Part shown: positions 34,376 to 42,552 of the stretch, in pieces
Layout: each line of letters opens with the position of its first letter
Position numbering within the stretch: the first letter of the stretch is position 1
Source: an uncultured Nitrospiraceae bacterium
Lineage (GTDB): Bacteria; Nitrospirota; Nitrospiria; Nitrospirales; Nitrospiraceae
Direction: 5' to 3'
DNA length: 64,000 bases
Assembly: GCA_963730935.1 (NCBI GenBank)
Contig: CAVSTP010000003.1
Span: 672,001 to 736,000 of the forward strand
Notes under the pieces: model-generated
What the model saw: the letters and a program-made list of their open reading frames with translations, nothing else
The model's database searches: none
Told to the model about the DNA's origin: nothing
Position numbers and translations under genes: made by a program

Positions 34376-34548
34376 CCTGTGGCTCATCGCTCGTTCTGCA
34401 GGCGCACGGCAATTCGCGAATCCGCTGAATCCCAGCCGGCATCGAACGGATAGCCGGCGCTGTCGATGTCGATGACCTACGGGGCGTGATCCGAGGGTTT
34501 AGGTTTTCCCTTCCGCGCCTCGCGATCGATTTTCGCGCAGGCAACGCG
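34376..34548 (-). pseudogene. xth 3'-end relic R1
   Basis: Minus strand reads RVACAKIDREARKGKPKPSDHAP*VIDIDSAGYPFDAGWDSADSRIAVRLQNER*, homologous to 41663-41835. Confidence 0.9.
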
Positions 34549-34795
34549 TCTTCTCGCTTTGTGAAGTTGCGCGCCGATCTTTCGGCAGCTGCCGATAGGA
34601 CGGCGTAGAACGCTTCGTCACGTTAGTCTTTCCTCATCATCAGACGCCAGGTTCTTCAGCAACAATCCCTTTGCTGTCCATCACTTGCGTCCTCAATGTC
34701 CGATCCTCTGTCGCTTGGAACGGTCTATGCGCGAGAGGTATTGGTACAAACGATCTGAAGAGACAGAAGCTGGCAATAGTGCAAGGAGGAACTAT

Positions 34796-35782
34796 ATGAA
34801 AGCCGCAATCGTCCCCGCCGTGAGCAGTTCTTGGCAGATCAAAGATGTTCCTCAGCCTGAGCCGGGACCAAGCCAGGTGCTCGTGAAGATGCACGCAAGC
34901 GGCATCTGCTACACCGATGTGCACCAAACGCTCGGCCACATTCCAGGACCATTTCCTCGCATCCTTGGACATGAGCCAGTGGGCGAGATCGTCGCCATCG
35001 CTCCTGATGTGACCGCTCGCAAGGTCGGCGAGCGGGTCGGCTCGGCATGGGTTCAGTCCACCTGCGGACGCTGCGAGTGGTGTCAGCGCGGCCGCAAGAT
35101 GTTCTGCCCCTATATGAAGGGCACGGGCGGCGAGGCGCAAGGCGGGCACGCCGAGTACATGCTGATGAACGCCGACGCGACGTACCTGATTCCTGACAAG
35201 GTGACCTACGAGCAGGCCGCACCGATCTTTTGCGCCGGGTATACCGTGTATAGCGGGCTTCGCTGGGCCGATCCGCAACCCCACGAGCGCGTGGCCGTAC
35301 TGGGAATCGGCGGGCTTGGGCACCTGGCCGTGCAATACGCGAAAGCTGCGGGCTTCGAGACCATCGCGATCTCGCATTCCCCCGATAAGGACAAGATGAT
35401 TCGCGAGCTGGGCGCGGATGAAGTGGTCCGCAACGGAAAGAGCCTTGCCGATGCGGGCGGCGCCGACATCATCCTCAGTACCTCCAACTCGACCAAATCC
35501 ATGATGGACAGCATTCAGGGTCTGCGCCCGGACGGCCGGTTCATCGTGATGGGCGCGGACGTGGAACCGCTTTCGCTCTCGTTGGCCGAGTTACTCTTCA
35601 AGCGCATCAAAATCATCGGCAGCCAGCAAAATGGCCCCGAATATCTGTACGAAGCCCTGGACTACGTCGCCAAAGGAAAGGTCAAATCGATCATTGAAAC
35701 TTACCCGTTGGCCGAAGCTGTGAAGGCCTACGAGCGCGTGGCGGAGGGCAAGACCCGCTTCCGCGCTGTGCTCACAATGTAA
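34796..35782 (+). CDS. Zinc-dependent alcohol dehydrogenase (MDR family)
   Basis: GICYTD, GHEPVG, CGRCEWC-x7-C, CAGYT, GIGGLG; AAGGAGG RBS. Confidence 0.93.
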   Translation: MKAAIVPAVSSSWQIKDVPQPEPGPSQVLVKMHASGICYTDVHQTLGHIPGPFPRILGHEPVGEIVAIAPDVTARKVGERVGSAWVQSTCGRCEWCQRGRKMFCPYMKGTGGEAQGGHAEYMLMNADATYLIPDKVTYEQAAPIFCAGYTVYSGLRWADPQPHERVAVLGIGGLGHLAVQYAKAAGFETIAISHSPDKDKMIRELGADEVVRNGKSLADAGGADIILSTSNSTKSMMDSIQGLRPDGRFIVMGADVEPLSLSLAELLFKRIKIIGSQQNGPEYLYEALDYVAKGKVKSIIETYPLAEAVKAYERVAEGKTRFRAVLTM

Positions 35783-35824
35783 TGGGGCTGTGCCCGACCG
35801 CTAATTCATTGCATGAGGTGTTCT

Positions 35825-40358: not shown

Positions 40359-40364
40359 AGCCGT

Positions 40365-41567
40365 TTACCTGGGCGAATCCATTCTTCTTCGGACGAAGGG
40401 TGAATCCCAACGACTCCACAGAATTCCAAGAGCATTAAGCCATGGCGTCATGATCATCGTGGCCGCGACGACAATGATGCCAGTGGAGAATTGAACCTGC
40501 GTTTCTGTGCCGAGGGCCAATAACTCGCCAAGTGCCACGAAAGCAAATTCGCTGCATTGAGCGAGGAGAAAGGACATCCGAGCCGCCGCACCGTGTTGCA
40601 TGCTCATCGCTCGGGCGGCCAGATATAGCACGACAATCTTGAACGCGATGATCGCAAGGACGTGCAGAAGAATTATTGCGACATGTCCGCGCAGTACGCT
40701 GAGATCAACCGTCAGTCCTACGGAGACAAAAAACAGTCCCAGCAAGAGATTCTTGAGTGGCAGAACTTCCTCTTCCAATCGATGTCTGTACTCCGAGCTG
40801 CCCAGCGACACACCCGCGATGAACGCTCCCATGGCCATCGAAAGACCCGTGGAAGAGGCGAGCCATGCGCCGCCGAACAGGGCAATAAAAATGATTGCCG
40901 TAAAGGTTTCGCCGAAGTTTGGGGCCACCGCGAGGCGCAGGAGTCGGGGCCAGACGTACCGGCCAACGACGAAGATGATGATCATGGCCCCTGCGGCGTA
41001 CAGGACATCCCCCCATACGAAGCTCTCTGCTGATCCAGTCCCGGCAAACACCGGCAGCAAGGCGAGGATCGGTACGACGGTCAAGTCCTGAAATAGAAGC
41101 AGGGCTAAAGTCGCCTGTCCATATTCTTGCTCCAGTTCGCCTTTTCCTTTCAGGAGCTGGAGCACAAGCGCTGTAGATGAGTTTGACGCGACTAGTCCGA
41201 AAAGAAGCGCAAGAGACCAGGAAGGCGCGAAGAAGCGCCAATAAAACATCATCGCCAGACCGGTTCCAATCACTTGCGCGGCTCCAAGGCCGAAGGCATA
41301 TCGTCGCAGCGACCAGATTTTCCGAGGATCGAGCTCGAGTCCGATCACAAAGAGAAAGAAGACCACGCCCAGTTGCGAAATGTCGGTCAGGCGTCCAATC
41401 TGGCTGGTATTGAGGACATGTGATGATCCCAAAATGATTCCGGAGAGTAACAGCCCGAGTTCCGGACCGATCCCAAGCCGCCGAGCGAGGGGAATCATCA
41501 CGGCACTGATGGTGAGCAGCAACGTGACGGCCACTACTATATCCGGCAATGAGATATAGGGGTTCAA
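40365..41567 (-). CDS. CPA2 cation:proton antiporter (KefB/KefC-like membrane domain, no KTN domain)
   Basis: LGVVFFLFVIGLEL, SSTALV, LLFQDL, MGAFIAGV, LLGLFFVSVG, QCSEFAFV. Confidence 0.88.
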   Translation of the reverse strand: MNPYISLPDIVVAVTLLLTISAVMIPLARRLGIGPELGLLLSGIILGSSHVLNTSQIGRLTDISQLGVVFFLFVIGLELDPRKIWSLRRYAFGLGAAQVIGTGLAMMFYWRFFAPSWSLALLFGLVASNSSTALVLQLLKGKGELEQEYGQATLALLLFQDLTVVPILALLPVFAGTGSAESFVWGDVLYAAGAMIIIFVVGRYVWPRLLRLAVAPNFGETFTAIIFIALFGGAWLASSTGLSMAMGAFIAGVSLGSSEYRHRLEEEVLPLKNLLLGLFFVSVGLTVDLSVLRGHVAIILLHVLAIIAFKIVVLYLAARAMSMQHGAAARMSFLLAQCSEFAFVALGELLALGTETQVQFSTGIIVVAATMIMTPWLNALGILWSRWDSPFVRRRMDSPR

Positions 41568-41676
41568 GCTGAGCCTCCCAATTCGACCACGCGTGTCATC
41601 GCGGATTTCGTATTGCTATGCCGACCGATCGTCAGGACAAGTGCACCTTGGACGCCTCAGACCCTGTGGCTCATCG

Positions 41677-42552
41677 CTATTTCCGCTGGCGCCCCGCAAT
41701 GCGCGACTCGGCCGAAGCCCAGCCGGCGTCGAACGGATGCCCGGGGCTGTCGATGTCGATGACCAGCGGTGCGTGATCCGAGGGCAACGGTTTTCCCTTC
41801 CTCGCCTCGCGATCGATCTCGGCCCAGACCACACGGTGTTGTAAGGTGGTGGTCACCAATAAGTGGTCGATGCGCATGCCGATGTTTTTGTGAAAATTGC
41901 CTGCGCGATAATCCCACCAGGTGTAACGCCCCGGTTCCGGGTGATGCAATCGGAATGCATCGACGAATCCCGCGCTCGAAAGCCCTGCAAAAGCTTGCCG
42001 CTCGCGCTCGGAAACGTGTGTCCCGCCTTGACAAGCACTGGGGTCCCACACATCGGCATCTTCGGGCGCCACATTGAAATCACCGCCGATGACGGCCGGT
42101 GTATCCGAAGTGACGGCCCGACTGATCCAGCGAGCCAGCCTGTCGAACCACACGAGCTTGGCTTCATAAAACGGTGAATCCACGAGCCGGCCGTTCGGCG
42201 CGTACACGCAGATGATGCGCACGCCGCCGCATTCGGCAGCGAGCATCCTGGCCTCAGCCATCGGTTCATCGTCACCGGTTTCAGACGTACGGGCCGGCCG
42301 TAATGGCTCTCCAAAATTTGTGATGACGCTGTCGATGCCGCACCGACTCGCGATCGCAACGCCGTTCCATCGACCCTCACCGTGGTGCACCAGCTCGTAT
42401 CCGGCCTGCTTGAAGGGTTCGACAGGCGCATCCGCGTCCCCCAGCTTCGTTTCCTGCATCAGAAGCACGTCCGGCTTCGCCCGATCCAGCCACCACATGA
42501 CCTTCTCAAGGCGAGCCTTCAGCGAGTTGACATTCCAAGTGGCAATCCGCAT
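41677..42552 (-). CDS. xth: Exodeoxyribonuclease III
   Basis: MRIATWNVNSL, QETK, YAPNG, GDFNVA, YTWWDYR, MRIDH, SDHAP. Confidence 0.96.
   Translation of the reverse strand: MRIATWNVNSLKARLEKVMWWLDRAKPDVLLMQETKLGDADAPVEPFKQAGYELVHHGEGRWNGVAIASRCGIDSVITNFGEPLRPARTSETGDDEPMAEARMLAAECGGVRIICVYAPNGRLVDSPFYEAKLVWFDRLARWISRAVTSDTPAVIGGDFNVAPEDADVWDPSACQGGTHVSERERQAFAGLSSAGFVDAFRLHHPEPGRYTWWDYRAGNFHKNIGMRIDHLLVTTTLQHRVVWAEIDREARKGKPLPSDHAPLVIDIDSPGHPFDAGWASAESRIAGRQRK

Follow-up and report, generated by a model that had tools for sequence, protein, structure and literature searches.

We describe here an array of unrelated gene blocks, separated by partial copies of the 3' end of xth (the gene for exodeoxyribonuclease III), in a stretch of 64,000 nucleotides from the genome of an uncultured Nitrospiraceae bacterium. 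This whole stretch is called the window and coordinates are positions in it; q is a base number counted within xth, G000 is the source genome of the window (a 4.05-Mb assembly), and other G numbers are compared genomes. The array lies between the 5S rRNA gene (rrf, 32938..33054, + strand, Rfam RF00001), in which an rRNA operon ends and which forms the left border of the variable interval, and the anchor gene, an intact and convergent xth located 8.6 kb further on (41677..42552, - strand, 291 aa, TIGR00633, 248 bits). On balance, this rrf-xth interval is probably an additive cassette array that works on host homologous recombination, with the xth tail and its partial copies, hereafter the relics, as homology arms. 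Its architecture, its recurrence, the foreign-allele origin of its relics, the modules shared between genomes and its lack of an integrase are direct observations. A sequence-only reading of the window had proposed that genes are captured serially and additively, without an integrase, with xth 3' ends as the boundaries, and this proposal is supported by the relics of foreign alleles and by "before" states found in relatives.

Four Relics of the xth 3' End in the Window

When the xth region was compared by blastn with the whole 4.05-Mb assembly, four partial copies of its 3' end were recovered, and no further one: R1 (34376-34548, matching xth 41663-41835 at 82.7%), R2 (37871-37987, matching 41660-41776 at 89.8%), R3 (38644-38764, matching 41719-41841 at 91.1%), and R4 (40287-40345, matching 41819-41877 at 72.9%). 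All of them lie on the - strand, in the orientation of xth, as had been claimed. R1 covers approximately q716-892, contains a premature stop, and is closer to a foreign allele (88%) than to its own (81%). R2 (approximately q777-893) is best matched by its own allele, at 90%, and R3 (approximately q713-835) misses its tail at the junction with a gene encoding a 180-aa protein.

The match of R4 to the resident xth is marginal (35.6 bits, when the best of 200 codon-shuffled queries reaches 34.6), and it is by a profile of xth alleles that this relic is recognized (E 8e-14). It had been described as one piece at 40281-40358; the relic does exist, but it is bipartite and spans 40268..40345. Indeed, q676-734, 92% identical to the alleles of two other genomes (G059/G093) and 73% to its own, is joined at ATCGCGA to a tail, q846-865, that matches the xth-lipase junction of G029. 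Its codon changes are not "largely" synonymous (6 synonymous and 5 non-synonymous codons).

A screen of 3,029 open reading frames (ORFs), which detected only R1 among the xth relics, returned a few single 3' repeats and no ladder comparable to that of xth; on this basis, relic formation at every gene was rejected. Pieces of the array are present at 99% or above in four soil runs, and no RNA run was listed as containing it. No contig of the soil runs covers the array from end to end; the junction between the 180-aa gene and R3 is crossed by a single contig of depth 2.

Recurrence across the Nitrospiraceae

The array is not specific to the window. Among loci with at least 2 kb of sequence downstream of xth, same-strand 3' relics are found in 16 of 33 Nitrospiraceae loci versus 0 of 50 loci of other phyla (421 kb; one method). 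Regions were fetched for most, not all, of the genomes in which the xth 3' end was matched. A profile search of 71 loci identified 70 partial xth copies, 18 of them in loci without a full xth. Where a full xth is present, 48 of the 52 partial copies lie on its strand and downstream of it; of the other four, 2 are upstream and 2 are inverted. The locus of the named Nitrospira moscoviensis (L101) has one relic, and that of G003 has 12 in 38 kb. Of the 24 loci with a 5S gene, 18 were found to contain an intact xth as well, convergent in 18/18, and these rrf-xth intervals range from 381 to 38,336 nt. The ladder is seen in nine genera, in assemblies independent of one another, some of which are single-contig genomes.

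Among the genes of this neighborhood, almost only xth leaves such pieces. In 41 regions, all picked via xth, 26 genes of the local pool were followed: xth gave 33 downstream 3' pieces and a deaminase 2, and no short 3' piece was found downstream of a full copy of AHSA1 (full in 19), YCII (11), or an oxygenase (9), one 370-nt AHSA1 repeat in G028 being scored as full.

Within the genus, 19 of 33 genomes contain a match to the xth 3' end, and within the family 67 of 301 sampled genomes do, which makes the window-type xth itself accessory; its nearest named matches are Nitrospira and Nitrospiraceae records. G000 carries a second xth paralogue (G000:C2:771281-772036, protein 40% identical), so that the anchor xth may be dispensable. 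Two near-complete genomes harbor three relics each at places without an intact xth (G027:C1:3066776-3088851 and G006:C3:266136-272294). Across arrays, the cargo includes metabolic genes, PIN toxin-antitoxin pairs, a helicase, and proteases. The G001 interval (L042:6365-11865) carries SAVED, DncV-like nucleotidyltransferase, and AbiEii genes, and the rrf-xth interval can therefore serve as a defence hotspot.

Origin and Decay of the Relics

We mapped 57 relics, 43 of them with a resident allele, onto 49 intact alleles. The own allele is the best match in only 8 of the 43. Differences between relics and their own allele fall at codon positions 1/2/3 in the numbers 265/195/620, and changes present in no allele in the numbers 116/118/40. 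Hence, each relic begins as a fragment of a functional allele and decays afterwards; that R4 diverged within such an allele had been supposed before. In the window, R4 and R1 favor foreign alleles (92% vs 73% and 88% vs 81%), and R2 and R3 the resident one.

The array had also been read as a chronological record running outward from xth, and this did not hold. Private substitutions are flat with distance from xth (rho -0.02, 12 arrays) and far relics are no more decayed, so that relic order is no clock running from xth. In 15 arrays, the farthest relic outscores the nearest in 9 and scores lower in 6, and relics tend to be longer away from xth (rho +0.40, 46 relics). The order may be blurred by erosion or by units entering at internal relics. 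Third-position divergence along 44 Nitrospiraceae alleles, from 5' to 3', is 0.30, 0.33, 0.34, and 0.37, and along 61 alleles of other phyla 0.38, 0.41, 0.42, and 0.39. This weak 5'-to-3' rise is what points to a replacement of the resident xth 3' end, which may or may not accompany every event; some blocks carry genes found upstream of xth elsewhere.

Modules Attached in One Genome and Displaced in Another

The gene for an LCAT-like alpha/beta hydrolase (hereafter the lipase; 38901..40187, + strand) stands between R4 and R3 in the window and directly behind an intact-length xth in G029. The two genomes are collinear over 1651 nt (90.7%) that comprise R3, the lipase, and the R4 tail, and share the lipase-relic junction at R3. 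The sequence matching the R4 tail is, in G029, the end of a full-length xth: the window has R4-lipase where G029 has xth-lipase (in our own mapping, the G029 xth shows a frameshift in that assembly). More generally, the cargo that comes first after an intact xth in some other genome is found at 10 of 61 relic 3' flanks, and at 23 of 65 relic 5' flanks the cargo-relic adjacency is common to another genome. In G003, three relics are each followed by the block that directly follows xth in G300, G113, and G224, respectively, and the isochorismatase end of a window cargo block is also found behind a relic in G197.

Lack of an Integrase

The source genome contains 13 tyrosine and 4 serine recombinase matches, none of them on the window contig. 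In the regions of relatives, 234 ORFs were listed and 117 of them compared with Pfam; no integrase was identified, the mobile-element matches being insertion sequences and one Y1 transposase, and tblastn with nine G000 tyrosine recombinases against the fetched regions found no tyrosine recombinase in the arrays. The absence of an integrase, asserted for the window, thus extends to its contig and, within the scope of these searches, to the arrays of relatives; the window has no Y1 gene. There is no reverse transcriptase in the assembly, and an origin of the relics as retro-type 5'-truncated copies was rejected for that reason.

Relic boundaries do differ, as had been noticed: starts are spread over q394-832, and 30 of the 68 starts listed fall in q687-731. 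Because of this spread, a fixed att site in xth was rejected, and a site-specific element targeting xth, which the sequence-only reading had offered as an alternative, is unlikely.

A Model and Its Rivals

Our best reading of the array is a sequential displacement in the style of Rhs and type VI secretion system (T6SS) loci, in which the tail of a repair gene would serve as the arm and the cargo would be unrelated to it. A unit would consist of an xth 3' piece and of the cargo formerly behind that piece. It would loop out as a circle between two xth-derived copies or, alternatively, arrive as a linear fragment carrying xth sequence at both ends, and it would enter the recipient at the xth 3' end or at any relic. 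By this way, xth would remain intact, its old end would turn into a relic, and earlier cargo would be retained. New cargo junctions would be made when DNA is now and then joined illegitimately within, or immediately beyond, the C-terminal tail, which is dispensable; the relics would later be shortened by deletions. The dependence on RecA, the circles, and the uptake by transformation are steps that we infer. The source genome has comEC, dprA, and two Ku genes; comEC and dprA are the competence machinery expected for a product of homology-facilitated illegitimate recombination (HFIR), and, as widespread genes, they are weak evidence. As to microhomology at far junctions, the 7-nt ATCGCGA lies inside R4, and none is evident at the junctions of CPA2 and of the 180-aa gene when these are compared with 83-85% identical orthologues.

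Several observations weigh against this model. Relics are only 50-350 nt long and 70-92% identical, and such short, diverged sequences are poor substrates for RecA. On the 5' side of 9 of 65 relics and on the 3' side of 11 of 61 are genes that other genomes have upstream of xth, which units made of a tail and downstream cargo do not explain alone; the 180-aa gene between R3 and R2 is one of these genes. The same cargo adjoins relics of very unequal length (e.g., starts 443 vs 693, 476 vs 806), so that what first arrived may have been entire genes. The order of G000 and G029 is not polarizable, a loss of CPA2 in G029 fitting equally. Correlations of distances from segment to segment along xth (0.45-0.55) reveal no special 3' mosaicism, and neither a circle nor a nearly identical pair of strains was seen.

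Part of these observations would be accommodated if HFIR were anchored further off, in the upstream genes or the rRNA operon, bringing in whole blocks with a second complete xth whose 5' part is then eroded, the tail surviving next to convergent cargo ends. This scenario is possible, without being likely. It would account for the upstream-cluster genes at the 5' side of 9/65 relics (YCII in G003, the 180-aa gene before R2), for the different relic lengths at the same junction, for the relic upstream of the intact xth in G001, for the places in G006 and G027 that hold only relics, and for the tendency of distant relics to be longer. On the other hand, no second full xth was seen in the 71 loci, and AHSA1, YCII, and the oxygenase lack 3' stubs when xth has 33. 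The singling out of xth and the concentration of starts in q687-731 could also recall a site-specific integrative element that targets xth, brings a replacement 3' end, and has since lost its integrase from every copy; starts from 394 to 832, unequal for the same cargo, and arrays devoid of any integrase in the searches by Pfam (117 of 234 ORFs) and by tblastn (nine G000 tyrosine recombinases) make it very improbable. A local tandem duplication followed by random decay, a dispersed repeat, or a misassembly appears scarcely credible. R2 and R3 do match the resident allele best, the private changes in the first two codon positions do reflect decay after formation, and no public contig spans the array; yet, no other copy exists genome-wide, the copies are only 73-91% identical, foreign alleles are closer to R4 and R1 than the resident one, and independent assemblies have the same architecture. 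The dispersed repeat, rejected by the blastn comparison, and the misassembly, which is not plausible, had been named beforehand as what would speak against the array.

The last rival involves TIRYT elements (TIRtrons), which belong to TnpA-Y1 subclass 2.1 and have the terminal-repeat consensus GGGGWSAS (PMC3733652, PMC6006769). Here, a HUH tyrosine transposase of the TIRYT type, supplied in trans, would cleave a terminal repeat at the distal end of the cargo and join the cargo into xth; the resulting circle or deletion (one-ended, ISCR-like) would provide the non-homologous junction, and integration would then proceed by homology. Motifs of this kind (TIR-type ends), scored with a matrix trained on 26 self-chosen G000 sites, picked after the motif had been noticed at relic flanks, and counted in kin genomes that are not independent, are ~9x denser in arrays than genome-wide and polarized 46:13. 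They lie 9-24 nt before 8/62 relic starts, versus 2.6% of control non-coding positions and 0 when reversed (8/65 starts with profile-defined boundaries). One Y1 transposase is encoded in G000 and one inside the G027 array. However, the motif is absent at 54/62 starts, including those of all four window relics, its spacing varies, and it is also enriched on the 3' sides, after 9/59 relic ends (control 5.4%). The window has a single TIR-type end, on the 3' side of R1 only (34323..34341, - strand, weight-matrix score 18.5), and no Y1 gene with paired inverted GGGGWSAS ends, by which a TIRtron would be recognized. All in all, we find this rival quite unlikely. A broader version, in which the xth tail and its relics would form a self-propagating, enzyme-free analogue of integrons across Nitrospiraceae genera, with TIRYT HUH transposases supplying the non-homologous junctions, seems unlikely too; if true, it would give the orphan TIRYT transposases a first function, gene capture.

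The only Y1 transposase of G000 (225 aa) is located at G000:C4:805000-842500 and flanked by TIR-type ends. This region is a 35-kb array of TIR-type ends and intergenic repeats, and constitutes a candidate TIRYT-associated cassette region.

Comparison with Known Systems

The e14 element and phage 21 integrate in icd, bring a replacement 3' end, and use their own recombinase at a fixed crossover. ISCR1 complex class 1 integrons also carry their own recombinase, and their duplicated flank results from a circle entering through homology. The displaced 3' end of a protein gene and the flank duplicated by way of a circle are what the xth array has in common with them. It belongs neither to the integrase-borne islands, as there is no tyrosine or serine integrase and no fixed crossover (mode q687-731), nor to the integrons, which have intI, attI, and an attC after each cassette, as no tyrosine recombinase lies on the window contig and the separators are xth coding sequence. 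The "attC" reported next to R1 was not confirmed either, its top strand folding no better than shuffles (z +1.5).

The closest likeness is to the C-terminal displacement of Rhs and MafB loci, for which homologous recombination with circular intermediates has been proposed (Jackson et al. 2009, PMC2935791). An intact gene is followed in both cases by same-strand 3' fragments of variable length, and a module attached in some strains is displaced in others. In the xth array, however, the anchor is a DNA-repair enzyme whose C-terminus is conserved up to the last few residues, the cargo is formed by individual, unrelated genes, in many cases on the other strand, instead of toxin tips and immunity genes, and relics are often closer to foreign than to resident alleles. 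The xth array works like this displacement without being a member of the family, since its anchor is not a polymorphic toxin. The T6SS arrays of Vibrio cholerae grow by sequential displacement (Kirchberger et al. 2017, PMC5361080) and are likewise integrase-free additive arrays with a homology anchor and an illegitimate far junction, pieces of which are later exchanged by homologous recombination. Unlike them, the xth array has no effector-immunity logic, its relic is the anchor's own tail, and its order does not track age.

Additive flexible genomic islands vary largely by site-directed recombination, one example duplicating a tRNA 3' end (PMC5217437), and many gene-gain hotspots are free of mobile genetic elements (PMC5635113; a further source for comparison is 10.1101/119735). 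A fixed position, cassette gain and loss, a duplicated target 3' end, and recombination in flanking genes are shared with the xth array, which differs from the additive islands by having a protein gene as target, variable boundaries, and no integrase. With TIRtrons, the xth arrays share GGGGWSAS-type ends, some of which adjoin relics; these ends are mostly single and polarized, and the consulted parts of the TIRYT papers (PMC3733652, PMC6006769) describe no role in gene capture. In the literature covered, from which most subscription papers were absent, no xth ladder or 5S-end element was found.

How genes are added, rather than swapped, at hotspots free of mobile elements has so far mostly been inferred. 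The xth locus retains a readable scar per event across a family of nitrifiers, with the same module attached or displaced in different genomes. Through it, Rhs-type displacement, so far known mainly from toxin loci, is extended to a repair gene of the ordinary kind that carries general cargo. The locus offers a defined 120-170-nt substrate on which additive capture can be tested, and a lead on the function of TIRYT.

Other Features of the Interval

Apart from the HEPN label, the gene order and labels first given to the array agree with Pfam and NCBIfam. Next to xth is the gene of a CPA2 antiporter (40365..41567, - strand), whose orthologue in G001, 83% identical at the DNA level, lies 1.1 Mb from xth. 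The homology stops 7 nt short of the stop codon; a truncation of CPA2 mid-gene by the junction was ruled out, the G001 orthologue having the same end point. The 180-aa cargo protein (38094..38636, + strand) is without family match, and its gene is upstream of xth in G017 and G020. Between R2 and R1, a block identified by Pfam comprises a zinc alcohol dehydrogenase, NmrA, SnoaL, and an isochorismatase (34796..37832, + strand). Between R1 and the 5S gene, two ORFs of 134 aa (33362..33766, + strand) and 146 aa (33799..34239, + strand) had been called HEPN genes; they have no Pfam or NCBIfam match, only RxxxxH-like motifs seen by eye.

The hairpin start of a repeat, designated "B", is found at 33261..33295 (- strand; 88.6% identical to the G006 copy) and recurs in the intervals of relatives. 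This repeat of ~320 nt starts with a hairpin, ends with a TIR-type motif, has one orientation in rrf-xth intervals, and has no Rfam match. It is also present in L035/L036 (G006:C3:267462-272845), G003 (7 pieces), G001, and G029.

In L293-L322, and not in the window, a mini-unit of ~160 nt directly follows the 5S gene (e.g., G264:C1:962106-962283). It begins with a terminator, two hairpins, and the fixed junction TGGACCT, after which the final 10 nt of 5S are repeated ahead of another terminator. Its pattern occurs in 32 of 371 family genomes (a reversed control pattern giving 6 matches), the distance between the end of the copy and that of 5S is 141-176 nt in 19 of 33 copies, and tandems reach up to three. 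The mini-unit looks like a site-specific, non-autonomous element of the 5S 3' end. No integrase was found near the 5S-end motif in 14 regions, and the motif is absent from the G000 interval; for these reasons, an island located at the 5S 3' end and equipped with an integrase was rejected as the carrier of xth.

Elsewhere in the window, two near-perfect palindromes (53146-53201 and 54380-54435) come after genes upstream of xth, and the left end contains repeated gene-start and gene-end segments (1602-1687/5875-5957 and 3020-3152/5049-5187).

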